DNA from: a virus
Lineage: Duplodnaviria > Heunggongvirae > Uroviricota > Caudoviricetes
IMG/VR virus record: IMGVR_UViG_3300033124_000732
Direction: 5' to 3' (one strand)
Length of the DNA stretch: 64,000 bases
Shown here: positions 16,354 to 64,000 of the stretch, one piece after another
Layout: each line of letters opens with the position of its first letter
How positions within the stretch are numbered: position 1 is the first letter of the stretch
Notes under the pieces: model-generated
The model's database searches: none
The model's input: the letters and a program-made list of their open reading frames with translations, nothing else
What the model was told of the DNA's origin: nothing
Translations under genes and position numbers: made by a program

Positions 16354-16377
16354 ATGTTTAGGTTGCTTGACGAGTAA

Positions 16378-18376: not shown

Positions 18377-18377
18377 G

Positions 18378-19562: not shown

Positions 19563-19563
19563 G

Positions 19564-21643: not shown

Positions 21644-21676
21644 AGTACTCTGGTTTGTTGTTGTTTTCAAATTGAA

Positions 21677-40563: not shown

Positions 40564-40576
40564 AAATTTTTCTTGA

Positions 40577-46629: not shown

Positions 46630-47476
46630 AGGGACTGTCCTTCCATTGTCTTAATCGTTTGTGTGGATCTTGCAGGACCATTCTGGCCCAGATGTTTGGA
46701 TTTTTACCGGTCATTGAATCTCTAAACCACGTGGTATCGCGGCCTATGCTGTCAAGATAGTCTGCAATTTTTTCAGTTTCTTCAACCCTGCGTTTGCGCC
46801 AGGTAATGTGATTGAAATCTCTAGGATCATTGCCGGGCATGTTTTCCAACATGATACGTTCTTTGAATGTTTCATCCAAGTTCTCGCCAGTAAGATCATA
46901 GCGTTCATGGTGTACCATTACAGGAATTGTTTTCACAATATCCAACATCCAAGCCACTTGGCTGGTCCAGGCATCGTTGATTTGATGCGGACTCAAATGG
47001 CCAGTAATTTCCACCCACTTCTTTGGCAGGATAGGAAAGATAGCATAAGGGTGTTCGTGATTGGTTTCGGCACGGAGCAAATTGAATTCTTGCCCGTTGT
47101 CTCGAATCACCTGATCCCAATCCTGTGTTTTCATCACAGCATCGTCATTCCAAAAGAACAACCAAGAGCCTTGACTGTGCTTGGCCAACTCGTTAAGGTA
47201 CTCGTTTAGTCGCATGTACCCTAATCTTTCAAACTGTATGGCGCTGTATTCTACACCAAGGTCATCAAGATAAGGTTGTACGACATCCACAAAGTGTTTG
47301 ATGTTTTCACTATCATCATTATCAAATGCCAACATCACTTCTATTCGACTGGGGTCTTTGGCCCGGTCAAGTAGAGTGCGTAGGCATTGTTCTAGTGGTT
47401 TTGGTCTGCCACGAGTGGGCAATAAAATACTGATGTCGATGGGATTGTCAAGGGGTAATAAGTTCTCTGTTGTCAT
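46619..47476 (-). CDS. glycosyltransferase family 2-like protein
   Basis: ISILLPTRGRP...MLAFDNDDSE, a GT-A DxD-containing N-terminal fold. 285 aa. Confidence 0.6.
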   Translation of the reverse strand: MTTENLLPLDNPIDISILLPTRGRPKPLEQCLRTLLDRAKDPSRIEVMLAFDNDDSENIKHFVDVVQPYLDDLGVEYSAIQFERLGYMRLNEYLNELAKHSQGSWLFFWNDDAVMKTQDWDQVIRDNGQEFNLLRAETNHEHPYAIFPILPKKWVEITGHLSPHQINDAWTSQVAWMLDIVKTIPVMVHHERYDLTGENLDETFKERIMLENMPGNDPRDFNHITWRKRRVEETEKIADYLDSIGRDTTWFRDSMTGKNPNIWARMVLQDPHKRLRQWKDSPFEQ

Positions 47477-49504: not shown

Positions 49505-50131
49505 TTAGTTAGGTTGTTTAATATCTTCTACTATTTTTTTCTGCAAGTGACTCAACAACAATCCATAAGCAGGTAGGATAACCAATAAGCTCACAATGAC
49601 TTTGCTGATTGAATTGTTGGTTGCAACAATGTGCCAGTTAGCAGCCATAAACTCATTGGCACCACCGGCAAATGCAGTAAAGAAGAACACATAGGTATCA
49701 AAGAATGTGCTCACAATTGAACTCAACGCAGGTGCAATCCACCAAGTAGCATACTTCTCACGAATGTATTGGAACACGTACACATCAAGCAAATTGCTCA
49801 CAAAGTATGCAACACCTGAACCAAGACCAATCCGGAAAGCCACTGAGTCAGGAGCACCGCCTAATTTGACTACCGCCATTGATACAATGATGGCAGGGAT
49901 GAATGCCAAGGCAATCACGGCACGACCAGTTTGTTTGCCTAACATTCGCACAGTCAAGTCGGTCAACACAACCACTAGTGGAAATGTGAACGCGGCTGCT
50001 GCCAATGGTGCACCAAACACTGAGAATTTAAATTGCACGATGTAATTGCTAACAGCAATAATAATGATATGTGCCAGCATGAGCTTGTAGGCCAATGCAC
50101 GGTCAACACCATTTAAGATTCGATCTAACAT
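49505..50131 (-). CDS. YhhQ/VUT-family queuosine-precursor (preQ0) transporter homolog
   Basis: 208 aa with about 6 TM segments. FPLVVVLTDLT resembles the DUF165/YhhQ FPLTYLLSD block. Sits among queuosine-precursor genes. Confidence 0.55.
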   Translation of the reverse strand: MLDRILNGVDRALAYKLMLAHIIIIAVSNYIVQFKFSVFGAPLAAAAFTFPLVVVLTDLTVRMLGKQTGRAVIALAFIPAIIVSMAVVKLGGAPDSVAFRIGLGSGVAYFVSNLLDVYVFQYIREKYATWWIAPALSSIVSTFFDTYVFFFTAFAGGANEFMAANWHIVATNNSISKVIVSLLVILPAYGLLLSHLQKKIVEDIKQPN

Positions 50132-50148: not shown

Positions 50149-50646
50149 TTAAACGAACAGATCTTCCATCCACTCGCGATGGCCTTCTCGGAAAGCCATG
50201 TTGCTCTGTGTTTCACGCACTTCTACACGATAGCACCAGAGACGCTCTGCTTCACCCGGTCCCCACAGGTCCGGAATGTAAACACCGTTCACATACTTGT
50301 ACAGCATGTCTGCTAGGCCTTCACAGCCCAGCCGTGGTAGGATGGTGAGTTTGGCCATTTTCTTCTCTTGCAAGAGCTTGTATGTTTCCAGCTCTGGATC
50401 ATCTGCAGATACTAGTAAGGTATGATCAAATTGATCTTCCAATTGCTTCTTGAGTTCTTTGAGACCACCATAATCGGCTGCCCAATTGCGTACATCCAGG
50501 TTGTCTGTGCCAAAGTAAAACTTCATCGAAAAACTGTAACCATGAATTAGATTGCAGTGGCTGTCAGCCCTCCACTGTCTATACGCACATGGAAATGCGT
50601 CATGGTACTCTTTGGTTGAAGTAAATTTGTATGTTATCGGTTGCAT
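50149..50646 (-). CDS. queD: 6-carboxy-5,6,7,8-tetrahydropterin synthase QueD
   Basis: CxxxHGH zinc motif (SHCNLIHGYSF). AGGAGG RBS 7 nt upstream of the ATG at 50646. The ORF track's extension to 50814 is rejected. Confidence 0.75.
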   Translation of the reverse strand: MQPITYKFTSTKEYHDAFPCAYRQWRADSHCNLIHGYSFSMKFYFGTDNLDVRNWAADYGGLKELKKQLEDQFDHTLLVSADDPELETYKLLQEKKMAKLTILPRLGCEGLADMLYKYVNGVYIPDLWGPGEAERLWCYRVEVRETQSNMAFREGHREWMEDLFV

Positions 50647-50729
50647 TATTTGTCCTCCTATGACATTATAGCATAGGCAGCAGAGTTTGTATAGCGGGAT
50701 GATGCCGGACAGGCCGCTTAGAGAAATAC

Positions 50730-51125
50730 TTATGCAGGTTGTTGATAGCCTGTTGTTTTGTAGTTGGCTTGTCCGTGAATAACTCCACGTACCCCACCCA
50801 CAGGATCTGCACAATCGCCCACACGTCGTGGAATCAAATGCACATGCGGATACATTACAGTTTGCCCTGCTTCTCGCCCCATGTTGATGCCAATGTTGAA
50901 CGCATCACACTTGCCATCAGCTACCATACGCCGACCATGCAACATGGCTGATTCAAAACATTCCATGATTACATCATCAGTATTGTATTGTGGCACAAAC
51001 AACAAATGTCCTGAAGTTACTGGAAAGCGATCACGGAACGCAGCTACATGAAAGTCCGAAAGTTCTTCCACACGGTCGTCCCAGGGTGCAATGCCTTGTT
51101 GACGTGCAATTTCTAAATCAGTCAT
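50730..51125 (-). CDS. HIT-family (histidine triad) protein
   Basis: HVHLIP histidine-triad motif. 131 aa. Confidence 0.7.
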   Translation of the reverse strand: MTDLEIARQQGIAPWDDRVEELSDFHVAAFRDRFPVTSGHLLFVPQYNTDDVIMECFESAMLHGRRMVADGKCDAFNIGINMGREAGQTVMYPHVHLIPRRVGDCADPVGGVRGVIHGQANYKTTGYQQPA

Positions 51126-51955
51126 TTAACTCCTTTTAATACGTTGATTACATCTTGTTTGTTACCAAACTGGTGTGGTTGAGAATTTGGTACATGTGTA
51201 TACCAAAAGTCTAACATGCGAAACAGTCGTGTACTACTAGAAATCACTTGTTCTACCCAGGCAATTTTAGGCCTTGGCGACACATTATAAAATCTTAGTT
51301 TATTATACTGCTCATTTATTGCTGAATCAAACATTTTGATATATGCCAATGCTAATTCGGCAGTATACATAAAAAATCCTGTAGGGTGTTGACCGGATCT
51401 AAACACATCTAACGCAAAGTCCACAATGTTACAATAAAAGTGATCTTGATCTTGATCTTGATTGATATCACCCACACCATTTACATAGTATCCGCCAAGA
51501 GCTTGAATTTCGTCAGCTAGATATAAATTAGCTACAATACCAGTTTGGTGAGTGTTTCTTAACACTAACAAATACTTTTTAACAATGTCCTCATACTCAG
51601 AAATAGTTACTGTTTTAATTAACGGAGTTACGTTGTGTTGTTGGCACCAATATTCAGCATACCAAGACTCTGCGGCATTGAGATTGCTAACTTGAAGGAT
51701 CACTGGTGTAAATGAAATATGGTTTCTAACAAAAGTGTTGGCAATCAATTCACTGTCGAGTCCGCCACTAAGGCTGAGATATAGTGGCCGGTTGCTCCAC
51801 TCCTGGCATAGCATTTGTGCAGCAATGTCACATGCTGATTGAAAATCCAATTCTTCAGTAGCAGGATTGTTAACTCGAAATGAAAACTGTTCAGGTGTAA
51901 GATTTACACTGCACCAGCCATTATGGCCAGCTGGATGCCATGTGTTAACGCTCAT
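51122..51955 (-). CDS. PP-loop ATP pyrophosphatase-family protein (277 aa)
   Basis: LSLSGGLDSELIA (SGGxDS). No C-terminal Cys cluster, so not a canonical QueC. Confidence 0.6.
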   Translation of the reverse strand: MSVNTWHPAGHNGWCSVNLTPEQFSFRVNNPATEELDFQSACDIAAQMLCQEWSNRPLYLSLSGGLDSELIANTFVRNHISFTPVILQVSNLNAAESWYAEYWCQQHNVTPLIKTVTISEYEDIVKKYLLVLRNTHQTGIVANLYLADEIQALGGYYVNGVGDINQDQDQDHFYCNIVDFALDVFRSGQHPTGFFMYTAELALAYIKMFDSAINEQYNKLRFYNVSPRPKIAWVEQVISSSTRLFRMLDFWYTHVPNSQPHQFGNKQDVINVLKGVK

Positions 51956-52868
51956 CTACTACTAACTTTCCAGACTCATAGTAGCGACTAAAACACAATC
52001 TATTGGTTTGCAAACTGCCACGATTGTAGTGATCATATTTGTGCTCGGTGTCTATGCCAAACAGTACTGTATCACTTGGTTCAAGATCTAACTGATTGCA
52101 AAACTCCAATTGTTTAGAACGCCATTTGGTAAACGTGGTATCTGGATTTCTACTGGCCATTAATTTGAGACCAATTGCAGCCGATAACTTGTTTACGTAC
52201 TGAGTGCTGTGATAGATTTGCATGCCGTCTTCAAAATCTTCTCTAGCAAATCTAATACCAATACGCAAGGCATTTACCGGAAAACTTTTGCTAAGACTAA
52301 ACACCACCTCTTGAATAGCTGGATGAGAAAAGTCATAATGTTGATTTGCGCACACACCAAAGAAGGCAGCGTCAATCAGTACAGGCACGCCCAATTCATA
52401 ACACTTGTCCAAGAACTTCTGATTAAAATGTTCGTGTGTGTTTCCGGTATCAGCAAATGGCCAACTCACAATCACTGCATCATTTGTTTTGATATCATCA
52501 ACATCTATAAACGTCCATTGGTCTGCATAGTGACGCTGCCATATACGTTTGTGATAGATGTATTCTCCACGAAATACTCTAAACCGTCGATCATGATGTC
52601 GGATATAAAAATTATCAAAGGCTTCTGTAGTGCCTTGACTAAATGCCACAACTGGCAATGTATCCAACCCAGTCACAGTGTTTAGTTGGCTGCTCAAAAT
52701 CCAATTTTGAAATTGAGCACAGTAGTCGGGTACTACTGAATCGCCCAAGTTGTTAAGTGCAGTAGATTGCAACACTTGATGGGTTAGATCAAGTTGCTGT
52801 TGCTCCACAACACATTCAGCCGGCGCATAAGGCCGTCCAATCAATTCAGGCTGTAATGGTAGGGTCAT
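51945..52868 (-). CDS. PLP-dependent aminotransferase-like protein (class I/II-like)
   Basis: FSLSKSFPVNALRIGI resembles the SxSK...G.RxG PLP-lysine block. Low-to-moderate support. Confidence 0.45.
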   Translation of the reverse strand: MTLPLQPELIGRPYAPAECVVEQQQLDLTHQVLQSTALNNLGDSVVPDYCAQFQNWILSSQLNTVTGLDTLPVVAFSQGTTEAFDNFYIRHHDRRFRVFRGEYIYHKRIWQRHYADQWTFIDVDDIKTNDAVIVSWPFADTGNTHEHFNQKFLDKCYELGVPVLIDAAFFGVCANQHYDFSHPAIQEVVFSLSKSFPVNALRIGIRFAREDFEDGMQIYHSTQYVNKLSAAIGLKLMASRNPDTTFTKWRSKQLEFCNQLDLEPSDTVLFGIDTEHKYDHYNRGSLQTNRLCFSRYYESGKLVVDER

Positions 52869-53684: not shown

Positions 53685-54377
53685 TCATCGTGGTGCAAAG
53701 TCCTGTTGTAGTTTGATGTTGTCAAAGAATTCTTTCTTCACGCTTTGGTCTGACTTAAACGCACCGTGTAAAACTGTGGTTTGTGTAAGACTAGAGTGTG
53801 CCATGATACCGCGATTCTCACAACAACCATGGGTAGCTTGAATATAAACTGCGACATCTTTTGACCCGGTCGCAAATTCAATTTCGCGAGCAATATCCAT
53901 ACATAGTTCTTCTTGGAGAGTCCCACGTCTTGCACACCACTGCGCGATCCGCGTGTACTTGGATAGACCAATGAGCACGGGTCCAGCAATGATTCCAATA
54001 TAAGCCACACCCGTAACAGGTTGGTGATGATGGCTACACATGCTCTTAAGCTCTGAACGCACCACCAACATACCTTCGTACGCTCCTTCTGTGTCATTTG
54101 GAAACGCTGTAGCATTAGGGCTCTCCTCATAACGGCCAGCCATAATTTCATTGAAGTACATTTTGGCAAGACGCTGTGCGGTACCTTTTGAGTTTGGATC
54201 ATTTTCCCTGTCGATTAGTAATACATCAAGCACTTGTTCAAATGCGTTGGTAGCTTCGTTGATTAAACTGTGTTTGGTCTCTTCATCAACATACTCACTG
54301 ATGTTGTCTCCTGCCCAAAATCTTTTGCCTTCTGCCTTCATCTGTTCGCGAAGGACTTGTGATAAGTGTTTTTCCAA
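53685..54377 (-). CDS. folE: GTP cyclohydrolase I FolE
   Basis: CSHHHQP (CEHH-type zinc site) and HGCCENRG (HMCM-type) blocks. 230 aa. Confidence 0.85.
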   Translation of the reverse strand: MEKHLSQVLREQMKAEGKRFWAGDNISEYVDEETKHSLINEATNAFEQVLDVLLIDRENDPNSKGTAQRLAKMYFNEIMAGRYEESPNATAFPNDTEGAYEGMLVVRSELKSMCSHHHQPVTGVAYIGIIAGPVLIGLSKYTRIAQWCARRGTLQEELCMDIAREIEFATGSKDVAVYIQATHGCCENRGIMAHSSLTQTTVLHGAFKSDQSVKKEFFDNIKLQQDFAPR

Positions 54378-54429: not shown

Positions 54430-55026
54430 TTAGACGGAATCGTCAACGATTTTGATATTTCTCAAGTCAGGGTATGGCACATGTACGGGTTTGGGATTGT
54501 GTTCTTTGACACCTTGCAACAATGCCATACCTTGAACAGCATCTTCGATACTGGGTTTGTAATGATAGCCCACATGAAAAGTCTTTTGGTCTTGCCACGG
54601 AACCACAGTTAAGTCTCTGCCATCATAGCGTTGACGCAATATAGTTTCATATGCTATCTTGTCATCTAACAATATGGCACCACCATGCCCAATTGCCAAT
54701 GGCTTGTTATGGCCAAAGCTCAAACACTGCATGGTACCCAGGCGATACATGCCTGATTCGAGTCTACGAGCCGAGTCCCATATGCGGGTGCCATGGAACC
54801 GATATTCGCCGGTCCACTCCTCTTCTCGGTAGTAGTATTTGATACCCAATTTGTGCATGGTCATAGGTATGCTGAGATAGGTATATGGAGTCATTACAAC
54901 TTCTCTCACTCGATTATATCGCAAGCAAAGTTCAATGGCATGTGTACAGCAATCAGTCATGACAGCATACGGTGCTCCTGTGAACTCTGCTAGTTCGTCT
55001 TCAAACTTTTTTATCTTGTCGAACAT
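54430..55026 (-). CDS. DegT/DnrJ/EryC1-type aminotransferase-like protein, short form (198 aa)
   Basis: SFGHNKPLAIGHGGAIL resembles the DegT PLP-lysine block (SFHxxKxxxxGEGG). Only about half the normal length. Confidence 0.5.
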   Translation of the reverse strand: MFDKIKKFEDELAEFTGAPYAVMTDCCTHAIELCLRYNRVREVVMTPYTYLSIPMTMHKLGIKYYYREEEWTGEYRFHGTRIWDSARRLESGMYRLGTMQCLSFGHNKPLAIGHGGAILLDDKIAYETILRQRYDGRDLTVVPWQDQKTFHVGYHYKPSIEDAVQGMALLQGVKEHNPKPVHVPYPDLRNIKIVDDSV

Positions 55027-55963
55027 ACCAGTTCCATGCGTGTTGAATCATGTCATCTAAATCATGATGCCGCCAAGCCCCTGCAACCAGGTTAAACTTG
55101 TCTGGACTTGCAATCAGTTCAGGTGGATCGCCTGCTCGACGAGCCTCTGTGCCAATGTGAGGCATCTTGCCAGTGATAGTTTTTGCCTGCTCTATTACCT
55201 GTTTGACACTGAACCCTTGATTTGATCCAAGGTTGTAGACCCCTGCAGGGATTTTGTGATACAACGCCAAAGCGTGGGCTCGGGCGATATCATCCACATG
55301 CACATAATCGCGAATGCAAGTACCATCAGCAGTAGGGTAATCATCACCATATATTCTGAACTGTCCATCATCTCTTGTGGCCTCTAAAAATTTAGCAATC
55401 AAGTGTGTGGCACCTGGCTCTTGTCCGTGCCTACCTTCAGGATCGGCACCACAAGCATTGAAGTAACGAAAGCCCACATAGTCAAGACCGTATGCCCGGT
55501 GATAGCTTTCCAGCATCATGTCACTCATCAGATTAGATTCACCATACGGACTGACAGGCTCTTTAGGATCCACTTCGTGTATGGGATTCATGATAGGTTC
55601 GCCGTATGTGGCAGCACTAGAACTAAACACCAACTTACAACGAGGCATGCTTTGTTTAACAATGTCCAACAACTTCAATGTTTTGGCCACATTGTTGTTG
55701 TAGTATTCTGAAGGATTCTTTACTGAAGGACCCACAAGACTGGTGCCAGCACAATGGATAATAGCATTGGGTTGTTTTTGTATGATCCAACTTAGGGCAG
55801 TATCAGTAGAAAAATCTTCACACAAGAATCCGTCGGGCACACCTTGAAGATGCTTGGGAGGATCTCTACGGTCAATGCCGTACACTGTATGCCCAGCATC
55901 TTTCAATGTGAGCATGGTCTGACCACCAATATATCCAGCTGAGCCGGTTACAATTACAATCAT
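55001..55963 (-). CDS. NAD-dependent sugar epimerase (UDP-glucose 4-epimerase GalE-like)
   Basis: GSAGYIGG Rossmann motif and overall GalE-like blocks. The YxxxK catalytic motif aligns to PYGESNLMS with both lysines replaced; worth checking. Confidence 0.7.
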   Translation of the reverse strand: MIVIVTGSAGYIGGQTMLTLKDAGHTVYGIDRRDPPKHLQGVPDGFLCEDFSTDTALSWIIQKQPNAIIHCAGTSLVGPSVKNPSEYYNNNVAKTLKLLDIVKQSMPRCKLVFSSSAATYGEPIMNPIHEVDPKEPVSPYGESNLMSDMMLESYHRAYGLDYVGFRYFNACGADPEGRHGQEPGATHLIAKFLEATRDDGQFRIYGDDYPTADGTCIRDYVHVDDIARAHALALYHKIPAGVYNLGSNQGFSVKQVIEQAKTITGKMPHIGTEARRAGDPPELIASPDKFNLVAGAWRHHDLDDMIQHAWNWYVRQDKKV

Positions 55964-57174
55964 GCTTCGATCTTTACAACTTGATATTTTTCGTGAGAAG
56001 CGTGGTCACGATAGCGATTGCCCGCTCTATTCCATTGCTCACCCACACCGCTAATAATATCCACAACACGATCCACAGTGGAATTGTTCCAGTCGGAAAT
56101 AAGTCCCATGTTGTGGTGCGGCTCGCGAAGTAGGTTTTGCATTTTGTGATAAGCATCATCTATGCTCCAGGGAATATACAGTCTATTGGGATCGTTTGCG
56201 AAGGTTTCAGGAAAACTGCGATACGCTGGATATAACACATTGCATCCAAGAGTATCGGCCTCTGATACGGTGTTTGAAACCCAATCTTGTAAAGCACAAT
56301 TAAACAACACACGAGTATTGTTAAGATGAGCATAGTATTCATTTTTGCTTATGTTGTCGTAGATTTTGAGCTTGCCTTGTGCCTCCATACGGCGGGCACG
56401 TTCAATATACTCTGGATTGTTGGATCGGAGAGGTCCGCCACTGTATATTGCAAACTCACATGGCTCGCTGGTGAGCTCACCATACATCTCAATGAGGTCC
56501 ATAAAGAAGCCAGGTTGCTTCTCTTGATCGAACCTTGCTGCGAAACCCACCCTCCGCGGACGCGAAGCAAACGGCGTGATATTTCCCGTTCCGCCAATTC
56601 TCTCCAGAACTTCTGATTTGCCAAATGCCAGGCCGGAAATGTTGTAGATTGGAGCAGTCCATCCAGCGATGCGCATGTGCGCGACCATTTCTTCATTGGT
56701 AGCCAATACTGCACCCCCCGAGAAAGCCACCATCTCATTGACCATTTGTTCATACAAGTTCATCCACTTTGCCATTCCCCACACATGCACGAAGTCATCA
56801 GGATCAATGGCCTGTGCCAAACAACGAACATAGATCTTTGGACATTGTTCTTGTGGAATCTGGTTCATGATGTAGCCAAGACTTTCAAAGCCTGGTTGGA
56901 ACATGTCTTCAAAGTAGATCACATCATCACCAGTTACATCACCGTTCTTCATGAGCTGAACCAAGTTCATCATCTGGCTCATGGCAAAGTAACTGCGTCC
57001 GTGTGCGTCCAACACCTGGCCTACCGAGATGGCTTGTGTGTTGTCGATTGTGGTGCCAGGCACATACACAACATCTAGTCCTCTGCGGTCAAACACACGT
57101 CGATTCCATTCTGTCAGTTGCAGTGTGTAGCGGGCTTCATAACTTTCCAAGCCCATGTAGAATAGTTTTCTCAT
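55960..57174 (-). CDS. T4 alpha-glucosyltransferase (AGT)-like GT-B glycosyltransferase (about 404 aa)
   Basis: N-terminus MRKLFYMGLESYEARYTLQLTEWNRRVFDRRGLDVVYV parallels T4 AGT MRICIFMARGLEGCGVTKFSLEQRDWFIKNGHEVTLVY. Start at the ATG at 57174. Confidence 0.5.
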   Translation of the reverse strand: MRKLFYMGLESYEARYTLQLTEWNRRVFDRRGLDVVYVPGTTIDNTQAISVGQVLDAHGRSYFAMSQMMNLVQLMKNGDVTGDDVIYFEDMFQPGFESLGYIMNQIPQEQCPKIYVRCLAQAIDPDDFVHVWGMAKWMNLYEQMVNEMVAFSGGAVLATNEEMVAHMRIAGWTAPIYNISGLAFGKSEVLERIGGTGNITPFASRPRRVGFAARFDQEKQPGFFMDLIEMYGELTSEPCEFAIYSGGPLRSNNPEYIERARRMEAQGKLKIYDNISKNEYYAHLNNTRVLFNCALQDWVSNTVSEADTLGCNVLYPAYRSFPETFANDPNRLYIPWSIDDAYHKMQNLLREPHHNMGLISDWNNSTVDRVVDIISGVGEQWNRAGNRYRDHASHEKYQVVKIEA

Positions 57175-57395
57175 TAGTATCTTCCGGCAAAGCGACGAGT
57201 GTCTTCGTCCCACATGTTCTTGGCGTTTTTGCCTTGTGAGTATTTGTTAAACTGTTGCCACGCATAACTCTTAAAGTTGTACAAATCGGCCTCATTGTAA
57301 CGGTAACCATAGTCCTGACAGAACTCCAAAAGTTTTTCCAAGTCTTCTTGGATTTCAATCACGCGGGGATTAGATTTGTATGTAATTTTTGCCAT
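57174..57395 (-). CDS. hypothetical protein (73 aa)
   Basis: ORF only. Confidence 0.4.
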   Translation of the reverse strand: MAKITYKSNPRVIEIQEDLEKLLEFCQDYGYRYNEADLYNFKSYAWQQFNKYSQGKNAKNMWDEDTRRFAGRY

Positions 57396-57406: not shown

Positions 57407-57883
57407 TTAGATAGCAATGTTGATATTGGGGCGGTGAGTTTCATATTTAATAAGGGCTCCATTTTCACCATCTTCAGAGACCTCAATCCAGACTGAGCGT
57501 CCGGGATACCTGCCAGCGATTTGCAAATACAAATCGTCCGACATCATTTCACATGACTTGTAGTCAAGTTGGATGGTTCCTTCTTTGTAGAGCTTTTCGA
57601 GCCATCGCTTGAACTGGATGAATTCAATGTCTCTATCATTGTGTACAACAGAAATCCACACCCGGAAGTGGAAGATATGACGGTGAGGAGTACCAAGGAA
57701 ACTAACGTCATACTCATCGCCCGTCTTAAGGGCTGGATCTGTTGCGGCTGCTGGGTAACAGTGGATGCCTTCTCTTTGGAAGGTAACCCAGATTTGTCTT
57801 TGAGCGGCATGCTTGATTCTTTCTACAGTGTCTCGTTCAGCTTGTATCATTTGATTACTTCGTCCTTTGTGTATTGATCCCAT
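57407..57883 (-). CDS. hypothetical protein (158 aa)
   Basis: ORF only. His-rich patch TPHRHIFHF. Confidence 0.45.
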   Translation of the reverse strand: MGSIHKGRSNQMIQAERDTVERIKHAAQRQIWVTFQREGIHCYPAAATDPALKTGDEYDVSFLGTPHRHIFHFRVWISVVHNDRDIEFIQFKRWLEKLYKEGTIQLDYKSCEMMSDDLYLQIAGRYPGRSVWIEVSEDGENGALIKYETHRPNINIAI

Positions 57884-58380
57884 GAGGTAAATGTTTTTCT
57901 ATCCAGCAAATTATGCAGGCTGTGACACCATACTCCGGGGTTGGTTGCTTTGAAATCTTTGTCGTCCAGTTTGATTGTGGTATTGTAACCTAGCAGTTTG
58001 ACGTAAGGTAGTTTTACAGATATCATTGGGATAAATTGTGACTGTTCGCACAAACTGCCTTCAGCTAGGCCTTCCACAGCACTGACATCAAGATCTAGTG
58101 TACACCAGTATCCTTTGTCCAACCACGGTTGAATCATGCGTTCCCACGCAGTCCAGGCTTCAGCATCATTGATAGTGGGATTTGGAAAACTTTGATTGGC
58201 ACCAAAATAGATGTGTGTGATTGGTAGTTTTGATCGTGCATCAATTTCGCCACGCTTCCAGTCAATATCTGATGCAGTTTGCAATCCTACCACAAACAAT
58301 GTGCGGTGTCCAGCAACAGGGCTGGCCTCAACTTCTGTACCTACAAAGAAGTTGGTGTCTGCGTGTCCTTGGCGATTCAT
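57847..58380 (-). CDS. hypothetical protein (177 aa)
   Basis: ORF only. Confidence 0.45.
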   Translation of the reverse strand: MNRQGHADTNFFVGTEVEASPVAGHRTLFVVGLQTASDIDWKRGEIDARSKLPITHIYFGANQSFPNPTINDAEAWTAWERMIQPWLDKGYWCTLDLDVSAVEGLAEGSLCEQSQFIPMISVKLPYVKLLGYNTTIKLDDKDFKATNPGVWCHSLHNLLDRKTFTSWDQYTKDEVIK

Positions 58381-59927
58381 TTGATTTGCTCACTTTCAAG
58401 CAGTTGTAATGCTTCTAATTGTAACTGGTCTTCGGGTTCTGTGTCAACTTCTGGTTGTTCGAAAGAGAACAGTGCGTTGAATTGTGTGCGAGCGTTTTTG
58501 GTCTTCTTACCTTTGAATCCTCGTGTGCCCACAATCTCCATCCAATAACTATCATATGTTTCAATAATAGCGTCAGCAGTTTCTCGATCTGGTGCGGCAA
58601 AGATTGCTTCCACAATGTCTTCAAATCGAGCATAATCGCCTGTGCTACGGCGCATCATGGCAGGATGTTCACCTGCATCAAATCGTCGATTGGCTTCTTG
58701 CACAGCAGTTAGATGCATCCAAACATTGTGCCCCATCAGCAGTGCATATGAGAATGAATCCCATGATGTCTTGCCTTCTTTGCCAATCTTATTTAGGTCG
58801 CCGGGCTTGTAAATGCAAATATCTTTCATCTGAAACAAGTCACTTAGTGGGCTGTCTTCCCAGCGTGGATAGATTCCATCTGCTACCACGCCAGTTGACC
58901 ACTTGCGTGTGTCTAGGCTGTATTTTTTATCGTCGGCACTAGGACCCATGCGATACGACCACTTTGAATCATGTTCAAATACATTTTCGTAATACACTTG
59001 TCCGTTGGCTGTGGCAAGGAATGGACTGGCACAATCAAAACTAATAGTAAAAGCCGGATTAACGTATTTTCTAACTGCTCGTTGAATTACGGTCAGTAGC
59101 ACAGCCCATTCTAACTTTGATGTGCCCAAGAAGTGCATCCAATCATGCACACCTTCTTGCAACAAATTGTCATAGCGCAGGGCTACCAGGCGACGTAGAA
59201 CCAAATGAACGTCACACATGTTTTGTCCACCCATTGACCAACCGTCAAAATGTGTGTCTGGATACTTGACAGGATCACAGTATTCTTTCATGGTTTCGTA
59301 CCATTGGTCTGCACTGCTGTGGTTGTCGCCTTGCAATACATTTAGAATCCTAGTACCACCATTACGAATACCCTTACGATGTTTCATAAAGTATTCGTTG
59401 TTGAACTTGGTAGCGTCTACTGCTTCTTGCAGTGTGGAGATTTGACAGGCCTTGCTGGCTTTTTTATCGTGAATGACCCAGGTTGGAATATCAAGTGTCA
59501 TGCAGTAATCAGACACATTGTCCAGCCAATTAAGCACAAGCTCGCGTTTCTTTTGAGCTTTAGCACAACCTGAGTTGGCCTTCCAATCACCTTCCCACAG
59601 ACCTTTGGCAATCTGGAAACCACCAGAGTCGCCCAGGAGAAATGTACCAGGCTCTCGGTTTCGTACCATGTCCTCAGACCAGTCTTGTTTTGAGAGATCG
59701 AGGTTAGCATGTCCTCCAGACGCAAGTGACCAACGATACGGAAATAAAGCCTTGGTGGAGTTGAGCCAATTAAGCTGTTCCATGTCTGTAAGGCCCTGTG
59801 GAAACCGTGCGGGATCTACATATTGTTCATTCCTTTGCTTGCCCACAAATGTGGAATAGAATCCGCTGATGGCTGGAAGAAACACAGCGTAATCCAATTG
59901 CTTGGTAGTTAAGTTATCTTGTGTCAT
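58377..59927 (-). CDS. tRNA-guanine-transglycosylase-like protein (DpdA-like candidate DNA 7-deazaguanine transglycosylase)
   Basis: FLLGDSGGFQIAKG matches the TGT catalytic-Asp block (xDSGGFQ). 516 aa. Lies within the FolE/QueD/QueE cluster. No obvious CxCxxC zinc site. Confidence 0.65.
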   Translation of the reverse strand: MTQDNLTTKQLDYAVFLPAISGFYSTFVGKQRNEQYVDPARFPQGLTDMEQLNWLNSTKALFPYRWSLASGGHANLDLSKQDWSEDMVRNREPGTFLLGDSGGFQIAKGLWEGDWKANSGCAKAQKKRELVLNWLDNVSDYCMTLDIPTWVIHDKKASKACQISTLQEAVDATKFNNEYFMKHRKGIRNGGTRILNVLQGDNHSSADQWYETMKEYCDPVKYPDTHFDGWSMGGQNMCDVHLVLRRLVALRYDNLLQEGVHDWMHFLGTSKLEWAVLLTVIQRAVRKYVNPAFTISFDCASPFLATANGQVYYENVFEHDSKWSYRMGPSADDKKYSLDTRKWSTGVVADGIYPRWEDSPLSDLFQMKDICIYKPGDLNKIGKEGKTSWDSFSYALLMGHNVWMHLTAVQEANRRFDAGEHPAMMRRSTGDYARFEDIVEAIFAAPDRETADAIIETYDSYWMEIVGTRGFKGKKTKNARTQFNALFSFEQPEVDTEPEDQLQLEALQLLESEQIK

Positions 59928-60916
59928 AGTAATTGTTTAAGACTCGATCCAATGGTTATGTGTTTATATGTTGAAATCTCGAGCAATTTTTGTACAGCCA
60001 ATTCATGATTTGGATGTTGCTTATTACCAATAACATCGTGACTATCAAAATCCTTGATATTCCATTTATCAATTTTAGTAACTTCTCCTAGAAATCCATA
60101 CTCAAGACACATATTAGAAAAGTTTTCAAGATCATTAAAGTTTTTTGATTGTAACACAAATTTTAATAGTACATTTGTGTTCGGTCTACGGTTTTTAGAT
60201 AACCAACTAAGATTATCCTGTAGTACATCAAACCGCCCAGGACGCCTGACTACTTCGTAAACTTCTTTACTACCAGCATCTACACTAATTAGAAATTCTT
60301 GAATGTTTGGTAATATACCACTGTCTGGTAATAATTTTTTCATCAACAATCCATTGGTAAAAAGTATAACACTTTGATTTGATTTTGGTTTCCAATTTAA
60401 CACCAATGGGCGCATGATCAAACTGGCCAATGGATCACCATTACCTGTCATAACGATTGACATCGGTTCTGTAAATTCATTAATCAGTTTAACAAAATGT
60501 TTAACCTGTGCAAGTTTACGTTCAAACACAGGGCCTTCGATATAGTTAATAGCACCGACGCGACAACTTGGACAGGCCAAATTGCAACTATCATCAATGG
60601 CAAAATTAATTCTGTAGTCCGGTGTTGTTATATTTCTGTCCATAACACCGCACGTATCTACAGCACAATAGGTAAATTTACGATCCTTGACAGTTTGTTG
60701 TAGTTTCTGTGCTATAGGATTGTTCCAAATATCACTCAGTGATTCAAAATCGAGTACGTTGCCTACACTAACCGGTAACCATGCATCACATATACATAAA
60801 AAACAATTTCCCTCAAGATTGACGGTCAAAGTTTTAAACGGTCGATCACAGTCGTGTGCAATCTCAGTACTTCCTCTTGAATAACTTGAAAAAATAAAAG
60901 GATTTACTTGTATCAT
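59924..60916 (-). CDS. radical SAM enzyme (330 aa)
   Basis: CxxxCxxC in DDSCNLACPSCRVG. A second Cys pair (GNCFLCICD) near the N-terminus. Confidence 0.6.
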   Translation of the reverse strand: MIQVNPFIFSSYSRGSTEIAHDCDRPFKTLTVNLEGNCFLCICDAWLPVSVGNVLDFESLSDIWNNPIAQKLQQTVKDRKFTYCAVDTCGVMDRNITTPDYRINFAIDDSCNLACPSCRVGAINYIEGPVFERKLAQVKHFVKLINEFTEPMSIVMTGNGDPLASLIMRPLVLNWKPKSNQSVILFTNGLLMKKLLPDSGILPNIQEFLISVDAGSKEVYEVVRRPGRFDVLQDNLSWLSKNRRPNTNVLLKFVLQSKNFNDLENFSNMCLEYGFLGEVTKIDKWNIKDFDSHDVIGNKQHPNHELAVQKLLEISTYKHITIGSSLKQLL

Positions 60917-60919
60917 CTA

Positions 60920-61642
60920 TTACTTGCTTTGTGCCGGTAAGATGTAGTTATAAACAACAATGCCTGAATCCACAGTGATCTTGGCAGCACCATCATCACT
61001 GATGCGAATGGTCTTGTCACCGGTGAGGGCCAAGATACTCATGACTTGTTGAGCAGGCCAAGACCATGCACGTTTCAACTGACCATTCACACCAGGGTGG
61101 AACACAAAGTTGCCAGAGTGTGTGCTATGGTCACCAAAGAAAAACTTCAAGTCGCCGTTTTCGGTCTTGGCTTGAAAATGTGGTTCCTCGGCATTGGCCT
61201 GTGCCTGCATACGCAATCGATTGATTGCAGCCACAGTGGGTTCAAATTCAATATGCCAGTTAACACCTTTGAACTTGGGCGTCTTGAGCTTTTCAGTCAC
61301 AATTGCTTCGGCCATAAACCGATAGTTGTTTTTAAAGTCGCCCACAGCATTTTCAAAGTTGATGCCATCGGGTTCTCCACCTGCACGACGACTCAAGCTG
61401 AGTTTGGCATTTTCTTTGTACTCTTGCAAGCTCAACAGAATTTTCAACTTGCTCAAGTTTGGCATGCCAAATGTGCCCACAAAATCAGGGTGTGGGTTTT
61501 TAAATTCACCTTCCACAACCACACTCATATCTTCGGCCAAGCCTACGATCTGTGTGGATTTGTCATCACCCACAATCTTGATCAAGTCAATGCAACCAAG
61601 GTCATGTGTGTGTTGTACTAAGTCTAATAGATAATCTCTCAT
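60920..61642 (-). CDS. possible sliding clamp (gp45-like), 240 aa
   Basis: Size and beta-rich, acidic composition like T4 gp45. Located between RNase H-like/pol genes. No sequence motif verified. Confidence 0.35.
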   Translation of the reverse strand: MRDYLLDLVQHTHDLGCIDLIKIVGDDKSTQIVGLAEDMSVVVEGEFKNPHPDFVGTFGMPNLSKLKILLSLQEYKENAKLSLSRRAGGEPDGINFENAVGDFKNNYRFMAEAIVTEKLKTPKFKGVNWHIEFEPTVAAINRLRMQAQANAEEPHFQAKTENGDLKFFFGDHSTHSGNFVFHPGVNGQLKRAWSWPAQQVMSILALTGDKTIRISDDGAAKITVDSGIVVYNYILPAQSK

Positions 61643-61691
61643 TGTATACTCCTAAGTGTTTAATTATAACAGATGTATTTAGAATTTGCAA

Positions 61692-62633
61692 TCATTCTTG
61701 GCGAATTACTTTTGCCAGAACTTGCCCGCCACGCAAGCTACGGACTTCTCCGGGCTTGTGCATTTCAAACCAAGCAATGTCACCAGTACCGGTACATTGT
61801 TCGATAATTTTATAGCCAAGATTTCTGGCTATTGTTTGTATCCGACTGCCTGGTGTATAACACATCCAAGCGTTTTCTACTGCTCCAACACCGTTCCAGT
61901 TGTCGCATTCATTGTAGGTAAACACTAATGCACCACCAGGACGTAGTTTTTGGTATATCTCTGTGAGAAACTTTTCAATCATCTCAATGGGTTTCCAATT
62001 AAAATAGTTGTAGGCAAAAACTAGTCCAAATTGGTTAGACGGAAGTGCTGTAAAAATTTCTGTGTTTTTCCAGTCGTTGATCACATAAGGTCTCAGTCGC
62101 CGTTGGTATTCTTGAGTAAACGGACTCATTGCAACGTTAATTAATTCTCGATCATGGTCCACAAGATACAGCGGATCCATAGGCACCATATCTTCTATAA
62201 ATGTTTCGCGTCTGGCACCAAGAACCATACCGGGTAATCTCCAATCGGTATAGTTTTTTATTGTGTTGCGCAGGCGTTCGTGATCGTCAAAATCAATATT
62301 CAACTTGCGATTGATCAGATGTTCTACTGTTTCAAAACACATCTCCTGCTCGTATCTCTTCCAACTTTCTGCATAATATTCAGGGGCCAAGCGATCAACG
62401 TCGTTTTGTAATTGTTGTTTTAATGCCTGAAGTGATTGATCAAATTTACCAATAGAATGTTTGACACCTGCAAGTTTTTCATCAAGATCTGAGTTTGCGG
62501 AATGATATTGCAAGTCTCGATTTTTTACCGCATGCAAAATGTTATCTAACTTGTCAGTTATATTACCATAAGAAGGATCCATGTCAGTACTGTCTAACAT
62601 GTTTAAGTATGCAACAACTTGGCTTAGCTTCAT
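61692..62633 (-). CDS. SAM-dependent methyltransferase with N-terminal coiled-coil region
   Basis: C-terminal LRPGGALVFTY (MTase post-I/II block). Start at the Met whose ATG overlaps the polymerase stop. Confidence 0.55.
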   Translation of the reverse strand: MKLSQVVAYLNMLDSTDMDPSYGNITDKLDNILHAVKNRDLQYHSANSDLDEKLAGVKHSIGKFDQSLQALKQQLQNDVDRLAPEYYAESWKRYEQEMCFETVEHLINRKLNIDFDDHERLRNTIKNYTDWRLPGMVLGARRETFIEDMVPMDPLYLVDHDRELINVAMSPFTQEYQRRLRPYVINDWKNTEIFTALPSNQFGLVFAYNYFNWKPIEMIEKFLTEIYQKLRPGGALVFTYNECDNWNGVGAVENAWMCYTPGSRIQTIARNLGYKIIEQCTGTGDIAWFEMHKPGEVRSLRGGQVLAKVIRQE

Positions 62634-64000
62634 TCGAATGAAAATAGTGATGTAAAAGTGTTTTCTGTGTTGGTAGCAGCCGCAAGGTCCCACTCCAACA
62701 CACCCAGCAAGTTATCGACCTTTTGATCCACAACAGTTGCTTCCATTAACCCATCGTCAAACGGCAGTTCAGTAAACCATGCAGGCAATCTTTGTTCATC
62801 GGTAGGATAGCCAATTGACGTCCATCCAAGTGCATTTGATTTGAGTTTGCACACAATGGTTTTCATACCATCCACGACCTGCATTGAGTAGTTGTCTGAA
62901 TTCATTCTACGCATTTGATTCCAGTTCATTGCGGCTCTAACGTGCCCGGGCATGTTTGCTTTGCCAAGACGTGCTTCTTCTGCCGCATACTTGGTCAAGT
63001 TGTTCACACGCTTGGGTGACCCTTTCTCCCAGCCTGGCCGCTCTTTGAATTCATACTTGAATTCTCTAATGCGTTCAATAATTTCATCTCGTTGTGTACC
63101 TGCCAGTACTTTATTTAGAATTTCTAGCAAGAAGTCTTGAATTACTTTGGGAGTATCACTGCGTTTCAAATCCAAGCCCATAGCCTTGGTCTTGCCAATC
63201 TTGCCATCCACATCCAATCGCTTGCCTTCCAAGTCAATGATGTTCACAGCATAACGCTTCTTGGTAATGAACAAACTGCGGTCAGCAACCAGTTCACGGC
63301 CAGCTTTGATCAAGGATCCCATGTCTCTGGGACAATGGAATGCCTGTTCCATAAACGCTGGAAAGCTCTCGTTTACCTGATCAGCAATTGAGTCATACAG
63401 TTGGATGCAAGTTTCTTTTGACCATTCCATACGTCCTTCTGCAACTTCTTTTTCCAGTATGGGCCACGCAGAGAAATAGCATGAGTCTGTATCACCATAG
63501 ATGATGGCCTTGCCTGTGTGATCATATTCGCCTGTGATACACTCGTTGATGTGAGCATCCATGTGCTTGGCAATTGATCTGCCTGCCAGTGTGGTTGACT
63601 GCCCAATGCGCTTGTCAAAGAATCTACAGCCTGGATTCAAAATAGCACCATACAAGGAGTTAAGGTTAATCTTCTTGACCAGCTGACGCTTGTCCCAGAA
63701 CGCAATCTCTTTGGGATCCTTGGTTTCTTTCTTCTTGGCCTGTAGCTCTTGTCGCTCACGATACCAGCGTTCTAGCAAGCCGGGGATGATACCTTTCTTC
63801 TCGTAAGTGAGAATGGTACCATTGGCAGTGAGGATCCAGGGCTGGTTGCTATCAAAGATCATGTGCCAGATTTCCATGGCCGAGTGGACTGACTCTTCGC
63901 CGCCTTCCCAGTCAATGGTAATTTCTGTGCCACGTTGCTGTTCCATTACGGCTGTGTATTCTAAGCTGGCAAACAGGCCTTCCCATGCAGCCGCAAAACT
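62630..64000 (-). CDS. family B DNA polymerase, C-terminal portion (gene continues beyond window end)
   Basis: Motif B KINLNSLYG and motif C IYGDTDS. The reading frame stays open upstream of 63946 through position 64000. Confidence 0.85.
   Translation of the reverse strand, partial: SFAAAWEGLFASLEYTAVMEQQRGTEITIDWEGGEESVHSAMEIWHMIFDSNQPWILTANGTILTYEKKGIIPGLLERWYRERQELQAKKKETKDPKEIAFWDKRQLVKKINLNSLYGAILNPGCRFFDKRIGQSTTLAGRSIAKHMDAHINECITGEYDHTGKAIIYGDTDSCYFSAWPILEKEVAEGRMEWSKETCIQLYDSIADQVNESFPAFMEQAFHCPRDMGSLIKAGRELVADRSLFITKKRYAVNIIDLEGKRLDVDGKIGKTKAMGLDLKRSDTPKVIQDFLLEILNKVLAGTQRDEIIERIREFKYEFKERPGWEKGSPKRVNNLTKYAAEEARLGKANMPGHVRAAMNWNQMRRMNSDNYSMQVVDGMKTIVCKLKSNALGWTSIGYPTDEQRLPAWFTELPFDDGLMEATVVDQKVDNLLGVLEWDLAAATNTENTFTSLFSFE

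Follow-up and report, generated by a model that had tools for sequence, protein, structure and literature searches.

A phage GT4-like glycosyltransferase linked to a DpdA-type 7-deazaguanine DNA-modification cluster, with a predicted deazaguanine acceptor

We analysed a 64,000-nucleotide stretch of DNA from a virus of the Caudoviricetes (IMG/VR record IMGVR_UViG_3300033124_000732; hereafter the window) and found that, in many phage lineages, one of its glycosyltransferase genes is genetically tied to a cluster for 7-deazaguanine DNA modification of the DpdA type. Our preferred reading, to which we assign a probability of roughly 0.55, is that this enzyme (hereafter the GT) glycosylates a 7-deazaguanine derivative in, or destined for, phage DNA as a dedicated component of the DpdA-type pathway. 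The analysis itself establishes the fold of the GT, its donor-binding motifs, its gene linkage and its phyletic pattern.

Fold and family of the glycosyltransferase

The GT gene spans positions 55960-57174 on the minus strand, which also carries every gene given below with coordinates, and encodes 404 amino acids. Its ATG start (57174-57172) overlaps the stop codon of the upstream gene (TAATG), and its TGA stop (55962-55960) overlaps the start of the following GalE gene (ATGA). The open reading frame has more than 8000 close relatives, forming 746 clusters at 50% identity, and is therefore a genuine gene. The window's protein scored below threshold in Pfam, PHROG and NCBIfam, and PADLOC also gave no match. 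Its homologue in phage BUCT-ZZ01 (64% identical) passes the Pfam glycosyltransferase cutoff with 28.3 bits against 27, and a homologue that is 31% identical (P0195) also lies above the Pfam gathering score (Glycos_transf_1/Glyco_trans_1_4). In one relative, the 655-aa fusion P0157, the extra part is a low-complexity tail and uninformative. Megablast of 5 kb of the window had no match in the phage collection. When 185,579 species genomes were scanned for the GT family, eight matches were obtained, every one on contigs of metagenome-assembled genomes. The family is essentially confined to phages.

A fold search assigned the GT to the GT-B fold with high confidence, with two Rossmann-like domains, a cleft between them and GT4 enzymes as the nearest structures; a single-sequence AF2 model was unusable (pLDDT 37). 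The initial annotation had described a GT-B enzyme resembling T4 alpha-glucosyltransferase (AGT). The fold is confirmed, but the kinship is not, as the likeness extends only to the general fold. Twenty-two structures are closer to the GT than AGT, which ranks 23rd, and T4 beta-glucosyltransferase (BGT) ranks 53rd. Sequence identity to AGT (GT72; PDB 1y6f) is 10%, and neither the single GT sequence nor the family profile retrieved AGT from the PDB at E<=10.

Residues R214, E218, K219 and P221 do not vary in the family and correspond in the alignment to GRLDxxKN of PglH. The pair D297-x7-E305, also invariant, falls on the LEA motif of GlgM, the first acid of the EX7E motif being Asp. Judged from these alignments, the C-terminal motifs match the donor-binding type, with Arg/Lys for the diphosphate and EX7E. 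The GT is thus predicted to be a nucleotide-sugar-dependent, phage-specific, GT4-like enzyme, probably of the retaining type. Its N-terminal acceptor domain is unusually conserved by GT4 standards, which suggests that the family shares one acceptor; R15, D90, D127, W137 and E142 of this domain are invariant. The GT is acidic (pI 5.3), particularly in the acceptor domain (pI 4.8), which is unexpected for a DNA-binding surface and counts against a DNA acceptor. The DpdA-like protein described below is acidic too, and neither pI nor charge separates DNA from small-molecule acceptors.

The 7-deazaguanine cluster and its linkage across phages

The GT lies in a translationally coupled operon that runs in the order DpdA-like, p177, p158, p73, GT, GalE, mini-DegT and FolE. 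This module is placed in the replication region, between the polymerase and clamp genes and RNase H. A suspected split in the DNA polymerase was rejected, as the reading frame merely runs past the end of the window. The 7-deazaguanine context of the GT had been overlooked in the initial annotation. It comprises a GTP cyclohydrolase I (FolE; 53685-54377; Pfam 1.3e-38), a member of the QueD/6-pyruvoyl-tetrahydropterin synthase (PTPS) family (50149-50649; Pfam PTPS 2.3e-16) and a QueE-like radical SAM enzyme (7-carboxy-7-deazaguanine synthase; 44987-45859). The last was identified from annotated homologues, with 45% identity to the QueE of BUCT-ZZ01 and 30% to that of PA5oct, and it has a weak Pfam Radical_SAM match. 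The window also encodes a YhhQ/Vut_1-type queuosine-precursor transporter (49505-50131; Pfam 1.3e-21), a lineage-specific accessory present in only 5 of 85 close loci. With this transporter, preQ0 could still be salvaged, which counts against our preferred reading.

The first gene of the operon (58377-59927) encodes a predicted DpdA2-like DNA-guanine transglycosylase of 516 amino acids with the motifs GDSGGFQ, H..LG and ISFDC. Residues D100-S-G-G-x-Q and S296-x-D298 are invariant in the family alignment. The Asp residues of DSGGFQ and the FDC-like motif presumably correspond to the catalytic residues of tRNA-guanine transglycosylases (TGT). Neither the single sequence nor an eight-sequence profile matched the PDB, no family member matched Pfam, and PADLOC gave no match either. 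The protein is 35% identical to gp316 of PA5oct. Using hhalign, we aligned the family with a profile of the DpdA2 group (nt-1 YP_008125322, the BUDD 'queuine tRNA-ribosyltransferase', BUCT-ZZ01 and L101) at a probability of 98.5 (E 3.8e-15; 298 columns). Against nt-1 DpdA2 the probability was 97.5 with BUCT-ZZ01 in the profile. The match depends on comparing profile with profile: without BUCT-ZZ01, the probability against the single nt-1 DpdA2 or BUDD TGT sequence was only 21-31. The comparison with the DpdA of phage 9g was negative. From these profile alignments, we regard the protein as a homologue of the DpdA2 subfamily, whose nt-1 member represents the published DpdA2 family (PMC6884629). 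Among DpdA2 enzymes, DNA data have been published for that of nt-1 alone, and the modification of about 0.1% of G reported for it (PMC6884629) counts against our preferred reading.

Two small genes of the operon have no assigned family. The 177-aa protein p177 (57847-58380), encoded between the DpdA-like protein and p158, had no family match. It is kept in 76 of 85 close loci and in five further loci (L004, L094-L096 and L098), and is missing from PA5oct, BUDD, ACP17 and BUCT-ZZ01. The 73-aa protein p73 (57174-57395), whose stop overlaps the GT start, is kept in 83 of the 85.

Between these two genes lies p158 (57407-57883), a putative PTPS/QueD-like T-fold protein that matches phrog_17812 (4e-35). 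Translation probably begins at the ATG at 57850, which gives 147 amino acids. Identity is 57% with PA5oct gp318 and 51% with the BUDD homologue, and H41, H67, H69, C111, E112, E137 and D138 are invariant in its family. Pfam PTPS was matched by 3 of 15 family members (best 9.5e-7), not including the window's protein. The best PDB match, aligned over the full length, was the PTPS homologue 2dj6 at an E-value of 0.16, and hhalign against the window's own QueD gave a probability of 31-34. A p158-like gene adjoins the GT in 16 of 17 loci and in 72 of the 80 census loci described below; p158 is obligately linked to the GT.

The same association recurs in cultured carriers of the GT, which include PA5oct, ACP17, BUDD/X1 and BUCT-ZZ01. 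In Pseudomonas phage PA5oct, the DpdA-like, GT and p158-like genes (gp316, gp317 and gp318) follow one another, stop codons overlapping the next starts, and QueE is nearby. ACP17 carries DpdA2-like, GT, p158-like and QueE genes consecutively, and only two bases separate the GT from an annotated TGT in Xanthomonas phage BUDD. Linkage to deazaguanine genes was also found in BUCT-ZZ01 and in four further loci (L004, L091, L101 and L103). We then have a census of 80 further diverse IMG/VR loci bearing the GT, which are partly non-independent, as they include several near-duplicates. Two family alignments (A1 and A7) were too diverse to serve in locus scans. DpdA was found in 68 loci (61 classical 9g-type and 7 DpdA2-type), directly adjacent to the GT in 42 and within 3 kb in 67. 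Most of the 12 loci where no DpdA was seen are cut by contig ends. FolE was present in 61 of the 80, QueE in 54, QueD in 50 and QueC in none.

Neither QueC nor QueF was found in the window or at any GT locus, a statement that covers the window and the fetched neighbourhoods rather than whole genomes. For PA5oct and ACP17, the tblastn organism summaries lacked the resolution needed to exclude QueC elsewhere in the genome. All three phage lineages examined that have a DpdA2-type enzyme and lack the GT (nt-1, Vibrio phage 2.275.O and Moby) have QueC. In Vibrio phage 2.275.O, the gene beside the DpdA-like gene was considered as a GT homologue and rejected, as it is no homologue. That the GT adjoins a 7-deazaguanine-inserting enzyme in many lineages suggests a sugar-bearing modified guanine. 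PA5oct DNA shows resistance to restriction enzymes whose sites contain G and is a target of modified-G-sensing nucleases, the modified G being of as yet uncharacterised chemistry (PMC12191111); for guanine exchange in DNA by the DpdA-like enzyme, this support is indirect.

Other genes of the window encode putative sugar-tailoring enzymes. The GalE gene (55001-55963) encodes a UDP-glucose 4-epimerase that scores 297.7 bits against TIGR01179 (cutoff 262.3). Its catalytic YxxxK motif reads Y140-G-E-S-N144, with N144 encoded by AAT at 55534-55532. Alignment to solved GalE structures did not restore the motif: Tyr140 of the Ser-Tyr-Lys triad is kept and Lys144 is replaced by Asn. The loss of this lysine, suspected earlier, is thus real, but it is no trait of the family. 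All 80 GalE orthologues from related phage loci have Lys144, so the family is normal, and K144N is a singleton of the window, whose copy is either mutated or mis-sequenced.

The DegT-like neighbour (54430-55026) is also present as first described, but it is a miniature DegT/DnrJ/EryC1-like protein of 198 amino acids, compared with about 370 normally. It matches PF01041 in two fragments (Pfam 1.7e-16), aligns only with residues 36-101 and 172-209 of WbpE, and falls short of the roughly 360 amino acids of a full fold-type-I PLP domain. Its HNKPL aligns with PSKPL of WbpE, so that the Schiff-base (PLP) lysine is kept. Relatives have 195-204 amino acids, and the gene occurs in 75 of 85 close loci. 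The window further encodes, as accessories, a HIT-family nucleotide hydrolase/transferase (50730-51125; Pfam 1.1e-10; 50 of 85 close loci), a GT2-family glycosyltransferase (46619-47476; PF00535, 4.1e-6; 52 of 85) and a cytidylyltransferase-like nucleotidyltransferase (42760-43236; PF01467, 2.7e-10). The latter two had been correctly placed in the cluster by the initial annotation. GalE and mini-DegT are lineage-specific accessories, being absent from L004, BUCT-ZZ01, PA5oct, BUDD and ACP17, and the central role first given to the epimerase and aminotransferase is not supported. The accompanying idea that a GT-B enzyme puts a sugar on phage DNA, perhaps on a modified base, survives and is sharpened by the DpdA linkage.

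Proposed pathway and alternative readings

The acceptor, step order, donor and biological role that we infer for the GT are as follows. FolE, QueD and QueE would convert GTP to 7-carboxy-7-deazaguanine (CDG), and the DpdA2-like transglycosylase would insert the deazaguanine base into phage DNA in exchange for guanine. Instead of passing through QueC to preQ0, as is usual, the base would be converted by the GT and its obligate PTPS-like partner to a glycosylated form. Transfer of the sugar most likely follows insertion of the base into DNA; transfer to the free base beforehand is less likely. For the lineage of the window, a UDP-hexose supplied or interconverted by the adjacent GalE is the probable donor. 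Mini-DegT, the GT2 enzyme, the HIT protein and the nucleotidyltransferase would perform lineage-specific sugar tailoring, in which the GT2 enzyme may add a second sugar. The final product would shield the DNA against restriction. CDG has no hydroxyl and offers only its carboxylate and exocyclic amine as acceptors, which counts against this pathway.

The GT might alternatively make a soluble pterin or 7-deazapurine glycoside that never enters nucleic acid, comparable to cyanobacterial biopterin glucoside or huimycin-type products, with FolE and the two PTPS-like proteins providing the aglycone. We consider this unlikely, since QueE, which commits the pathway to deazaguanine, occurs in 54 of the 80 loci and a DNA transglycosylase in 68, in most cases as a direct or translationally coupled neighbour of the GT. 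The position of the module in the replication region and the absence of the GT family from the cellular genomes scanned, those of cyanobacteria included, also argue against it, and a dozen other GT4 enzymes are at least as near to the GT as the biopterin glucosyltransferase BGluT. Like the eukaryotic enzymes that make mannosyl- and galactosyl-queuosine, the DpdA-like protein and the GT could instead act on tRNA and place a glycosylated queuosine-like base at G34 of phage tRNAs with GUN anticodons. Mannosyl-queuosine synthase is a GT4-type enzyme, the TGT superfamily mainly modifies tRNA, and the window encodes 30 tRNAs that include all four of the queuosine family (His-GTG, Asn-GTT, Tyr-GTA and Asp-GTC). 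The very small amount of DNA modified by nt-1 DpdA2 (PMC6884629) points the same way. We nevertheless find a tRNA target quite improbable, as the virion DNA of PA5oct is itself G-modified (PMC12191111), classical DpdA1-type enzymes, whose family has a demonstrated action on DNA (PMC6884629), are present in 61 of the 80 GT loci, and many contigs bearing the GT are 20-100 kb long.

Genes such as GalE, DegT, GT2 and cytidylyltransferase are typical of surface-glycan clusters, and Iyer et al. read the glycosyltransferase clusters of cyanophages and jumbo phages in this way (PMC7824862). The GT could then join GalE, mini-DegT, the GT2 enzyme and the nucleotidyltransferase in modifying an envelope polysaccharide of the host or a protein of either host or phage, and its deazaguanine neighbours would be coincidental. 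This is less probable still, considering that the sugar-tailoring genes are lineage-specific, whereas the linkage of GT, DpdA and p158 is near-universal in very distant lineages. The unusually conserved acceptor domain, which implies one acceptor, and the restriction of the family to phages argue likewise. Least probable of all is a T4-AGT-type glucosylation of 5-hydroxymethyl-pyrimidines in DNA. Beyond the low ranks of AGT and BGT in the fold search and the lack of sequence similarity to AGT, no thymidylate-synthase-like hydroxymethylase was found among the ORFs scanned in the window, which is only part of the genome. The conserved partners of the GT are deazaguanine genes, not pyrimidine-modification genes.

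Relation to known systems

Mannosyl-queuosine synthase (QTMAN/GTDC1), of the GT4 type, adds a sugar to a 7-deazaguanine derivative placed in nucleic acid by a TGT-family enzyme. It differs from the GT in being eukaryotic and tRNA-acting, and it modifies the cyclopentenediol of queuosine, a group that these phages are unable to produce. T4 AGT belongs to a 5-hydroxymethylcytosine pathway, whereas the GT is associated with a deazaguanine pathway. BGluT (UDP-glucose:tetrahydrobiopterin glucosyltransferase; PDB 5zer) comes from cyanobacterial cells, acts on a soluble pterin and has no QueE/DpdA context; structurally, it is no nearer to the GT than generic GT4 enzymes. The arabinosyl-5-hydroxycytosine glycosyltransferases of RB69, DLP3 and HY126 (PMC13326640; PDB 9iqz) are likewise phage GT-B enzymes that act on a modified DNA base and are accompanied by dedicated sugar-nucleotide genes. 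Attachment of a sugar to a 7-deazapurine base by a GT4-type enzyme has a precedent in HuiG (PF13439) of huimycin, which adds GlcNAc to a preQ0-derived 7-deazapurine (bioRxiv 10.64898/2026.04.15.718813). By its description, HuiG is a GT4-type GT-B enzyme that occurs with FolE/QueD/QueE-type genes; however, it belongs to actinomycete secondary metabolism, with QueC present, DpdA absent and a free small molecule as product.

FolE, QueD, QueE and a DpdA-family transglycosylase are common to the window and the described phage 7-deazaguanine systems (Hutinet 2019, PMC6884629; Cui 2023, PMC10516641), and the cluster of phage 9g lies beside the polymerase and clamp, the same placement as here. The QueC, QueF, Gat-QueC, ArcS and DpdL/M/N of the known systems are absent here, and a GT-B enzyme and a second PTPS-like protein are found instead. 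Eight 7-deazaguanine DNA derivatives have been described, none of which carries a sugar, and no glycosylated 7-deazaguanine DNA modification was found in the literature searched. We tentatively propose, at a little short of even odds, an undescribed class of DNA hypermodification in which a module of phage DpdA, GT-B and PTPS-like enzymes, widespread in environmental phages, would make a glycosylated 7-deazaguanine by branching from CDG in the place of QueC, and would account for the modified G of PA5oct.

Known phage DNA camouflage is of two kinds, glycosylated pyrimidines and sugar-free 7-deazaguanines, and a sugar-bearing 7-deazaguanine, if confirmed, would unite both. It would also reveal a new chemical branch point at CDG, where a GT-B enzyme acts together with a PTPS-like enzyme put to a new use. 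The co-occurrence of DpdA, the GT and the PTPS-like partner without QueC provides a signature by which the modification could be sought in metagenomes, and the enzymes are possible tools for site-specific DNA glycosylation. If true, such a modification would explain the restriction resistance at G sites of abundant environmental phages and of therapy-relevant Pseudomonas jumbo phages.

Glycosyltransferase gene and its sugar-gene neighbors

The initial annotation placed a glycosyltransferase (GT) gene at 55960-57174. The 404-aa ORF is present on the minus strand and is clearly a real gene. Its start codon (ATG, 57174-57172) shares bases with the stop of a 73-aa gene upstream (TAATG), and its stop codon (TGA, 55962-55960) shares bases with the start codon of the epimerase gene that follows (ATGA). 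These overlaps on both sides make GT one cistron of a tightly packed operon. A word-indexed search returned about 8000 relatives, the best 120 of which were 86-97% identical, and an exhaustive HMMER search yielded 746 family clusters at 50% identity. GT had no match in Pfam, PHROGs, NCBIfam or PADLOC, and a DNA search of the phage collection found nothing near-identical to it. When one genome per species was scanned (185,579 species), the family turned up at just 8 loci, each on a MAG contig, so it is essentially limited to phages.

An AlphaFold model of GT from the single sequence had a pLDDT of 37, and one built from 105 aligned, diverse members of the family reached a pLDDT of 94.9 and a pTM of 0.93. 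The family profile matched PglH (6eji; E-value 6e-4) over the stretch that holds the invariant SSRxDxEKxP motif (R214, K219), and in GlgM it placed the EX7E region opposite GT D297-x7-E305. Two GT homologs passed the Pfam GT1 cutoffs, that of the Synechococcus phage BUCT-ZZ01 (64% identity) and another at 31%. These results show that GT is a GT-B enzyme of GT4-like type whose donor-binding motifs are intact. The GT-B fold proposed earlier was thus borne out by the confident model and the PglH and GlgM matches, but the specific resemblance to T4 alpha-glucosyltransferase (AGT) was not: AGT was not returned by any GT sequence search and shares only the fold class. The N-terminal acceptor domain is unusually conserved: E10, R15, Y16, T17, Q67, D90, D127 and E142 vary little or not at all, even in the divergent set.

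The adjacent GalE (55001-55963) scores above its NCBIfam equivalog cutoff. Alignment with solved GalE structures placed an asparagine at the YxxxK lysine (PYGESNLM versus PYGATKLM), encoded by AAT at codon 144. The reported YGESN replacement is therefore real in the window copy, but it is not family-wide: the lysine is kept in 80 of 80 orthologs from related phage contigs, which makes K144N a singleton. The closest relative, L005, also keeps it, with 92% identity to the window in GalE, 95% in GT and 97% in the polymerase. On these alignments K144N is no feature of the family; a sequencing error could explain it, as could a minor variant or recent loss of activity. The DegT-like neighbor (54430-55026) was likewise correctly noted and retains its PLP-lysine motif, but it is a miniature of 198 aa that aligns with two segments of WbpE (residues 36-101 and 172-209); this form is stable among relatives (195-204 aa). 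The GT2 (46619-47476) and cytidylyltransferase-like (42760-43236) genes are both real. The genes for GalE, mini-DegT, GT2, HIT and nucleotidyltransferase were absent from contig L004 and from phages BUCT-ZZ01, PA5oct, BUDD and ACP17.

A 7-deazaguanine cluster around GT

GT is located within a 7-deazaguanine cluster, a context that the initial annotation overlooked. Encoded on the same strand are FolE (53685-54377), QueD (50149-50649), a YhhQ-type precursor transporter (49505-50131), a HIT protein and a QueE-like radical SAM protein (44987-45859), which shares 45% identity with the QueE annotated in BUCT-ZZ01 and 30% with that of PA5oct. Upstream of GT, also on the minus strand, lies a 516-aa protein (58377-59927) with the motifs GDSGGFQ, H..LG and ISFDC. 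It had no match in Pfam, PDB or PADLOC and is 35% identical to gp316 of PA5oct. Profile-profile comparison linked its family to the DpdA2 group (probability 98.5, E-value 3.8e-15, 298 columns), represented by Vibrio phage nt-1 YP_008125322, a 'queuine tRNA-ribosyltransferase' of Xanthomonas phage BUDD, BUCT-ZZ01 and L101. The second subfamily of phage DNA-guanine transglycosylases, DpdA2, has been published (PMC6884629). The genes for DNA polymerase, sliding clamp and DpdA come in this order in siphovirus 9g (L089), the jumbo phage PA5oct (L086), L002-L005 and the window (58377-63946). The transglycosylase seems to have belonged to the replication module for a long time.

Several other genes in the window were noted. 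A MazG/PRA-PH-type nucleotide pyrophosphohydrolase is encoded at 40228-40647, just past the RNase H gene; such enzymes remove canonical dNTPs in some modified-base phages. A 511-aa asparagine-synthase-like glutamine amidotransferase lies on the plus strand (35176-36711), and amidotransferases of this general kind complete some deazaguanine pathways. Besides QueE there are four radical SAM enzymes (21677-23308, 38671-39696, 47448-49421 and 59924-60916), including two B12-binding ones (one KedN5-like, of the C-methyltransferase type) and one of SPASM type. Together with the SAM synthetase MetK (43629-44729) and a class-I methyltransferase (45856-46629), these may tailor the modified base or sugar further. 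Two proteins are encoded at 51122-52868, between HIT and the small ORFs: a PP-loop-like one of 277 aa, which has an SGGLDS motif and no family match, and a class I/II aminotransferase-like one of 307 aa with a weak CobD-like match. Both are rare in relatives, occurring in 7 and 3 of 85 close loci, respectively. Dense host-like auxiliary genes (401-2219, 13704-24268 and 28309-29103) encode a porin, a TauD dioxygenase, a TRAP DctP binding protein, two TctC receptors, TerC, AhpC with a CMD-family protein, and an SPFH protein, which points to a large phage from the environment whose Gram-negative host relies on TctC-type uptake.

Linkage of GT to DpdA and a PTPS-like partner

GT travels with the transglycosylase across very distant lineages. 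In PA5oct, gp316 (DpdA-like), gp317 (GT, 22% identical to the window GT) and gp318 are consecutive with overlapping stop and start codons, and QueE lies four genes beyond gp318. The order in Acidovorax phage ACP17 is QueD, FolE, an unassigned gene, DpdA2-like, GT, p158-like, QueE. In BUDD, two bases separate the end of GT from the annotated TGT gene. The association also occurs in BUCT-ZZ01 and in metagenomic contigs L004, L091, L101 and L103. BUCT-ZZ01 additionally carries a gene annotated as xanthine-guanine phosphoribosyltransferase, located between QueE and QueD (L001 7093-7554), and a second GT-B (447 aa; L001 9010-10353) beside its DpdA2-like gene, which hints that this lineage may use a nucleotide-level step and add a second sugar.

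The most faithful partner of GT is p158, a small protein (57407-57883; phrog_17812) with 57% identity between the window and PA5oct, far above the conservation of GT. Invariant in its family are H41, H67, H69, C111-E112 and E137-D138. Pfam PTPS was matched by 3 of 15 members (best 9.5e-7), and in the PDB the family profile matched best to the PTPS homolog PH0634, aligned over its full length (E-value 0.16). We read p158 as a probable divergent PTPS/QueD-like T-fold enzyme, additional to the ordinary QueD.

A second IMG/VR scan, seeded with divergent GTs, gave a census of 80 loci on contigs of 5-310 kb, with GTs 24-41% identical to that of ACP17 and genes called by HMM and phmmer searches of locus ORFs. 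A DpdA-type gene was present in 68 loci (61 classical 9g-type, E-values down to 1e-39, and seven DpdA2-type), within 150 nt of GT in 42 and within 3 kb in 67, although near-duplicates among the loci mean that these and the following counts overstate independence. Most loci without a DpdA match are cut by a contig end. The p158-like partner occurred in 72 loci, GT, p158 and DpdA together in 63, FolE in 61, QueE in 54, QueD in 50 and QueC in none. The census shows near-obligate linkage of GT to DpdA, the PTPS-like protein and the genes forming 7-carboxy-7-deazaguanine (CDG), with QueC absent. By tblastn (four QueC queries and one QueF query), neither gene was found in the window or any GT-bearing locus. 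The picture is complementary in DpdA2-type phages without GT: the three examined, Vibrio phages nt-1 and 2.275.O and Stenotrophomonas phage Moby, all carry QueC. The Moby cluster also has an inositol-3-phosphate synthase gene between FolE and QueC (L105 4454-5704).

A proposed route to glycosylated deazaguanine

We propose that FolE, QueD and QueE would make CDG, that DpdA would place a deazaguanine base into phage DNA, and that GT and the PTPS-like enzyme would replace the QueC branch, giving a glycosylated derivative. Glycosylation could occur on DNA, in the manner of T4 AGT on hmC, or could precede insertion and take place on the free base, in the manner of HuiG, which acts on a preQ0 derivative (bioRxiv 10.64898/2026.04.15.718813). 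GalE, mini-DegT, GT2, HIT and the nucleotidyltransferase would then be lineage-specific sugar-supply or tailoring genes. Indirect experimental support comes from PA5oct, whose DNA withstands restriction enzymes at G-containing sites and is attacked by nucleases that sense modified G; the authors of that study inferred a modified G (PMC12191111). The main weakness of the proposal is chemical, as CDG has no hydroxyl group to serve as acceptor. None of the eight known 7-deazaguanine DNA derivatives bears a sugar (PMC10516641). Neither a glycosyltransferase in a DpdA cluster nor glycosylated deazaguanine in DNA is described in the literature searched, which covered papers available without subscription.

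A soluble pterin or deazapurine glycoside would fit the FolE/PTPS/GT4 gene logic and the presence of BGluT among the structural neighbors of GT, but the linkage to QueE and DpdA speaks against it, as does the family's absence from cellular genomes other than the MAG-contig loci. The window also encodes 30 tRNAs for nearly all amino acids (2286-26897, minus strand), and these include all four GUN-anticodon species (His-GTG, Asn-GTT, Tyr-GTA and Asp-GTC). Among them lies a tmRNA (15760-16166, minus strand; tag ANDEQFALAA). This content would suit a tRNA target, which is disfavored by the findings on PA5oct DNA and by how common classical, DNA-type DpdA is among GT loci. T4-style glucosylation of hydroxymethyl-pyrimidines has the wrong conserved partners, and no hydroxymethylase was found among the window ORFs scanned. 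GT clusters in phages are customarily read as serving envelope or protein glycosylation (PMC7824862), a role with which the conserved linkage is inconsistent.

The glycosylated-deazaguanine proposal is directly testable in cultured phages, namely the PA5oct group, ACP17, BUDD/X1, BUCT-ZZ01, Phosso and BCSR5. If it holds, the GT module would combine deazaguanine base exchange with DNA glycosylation.
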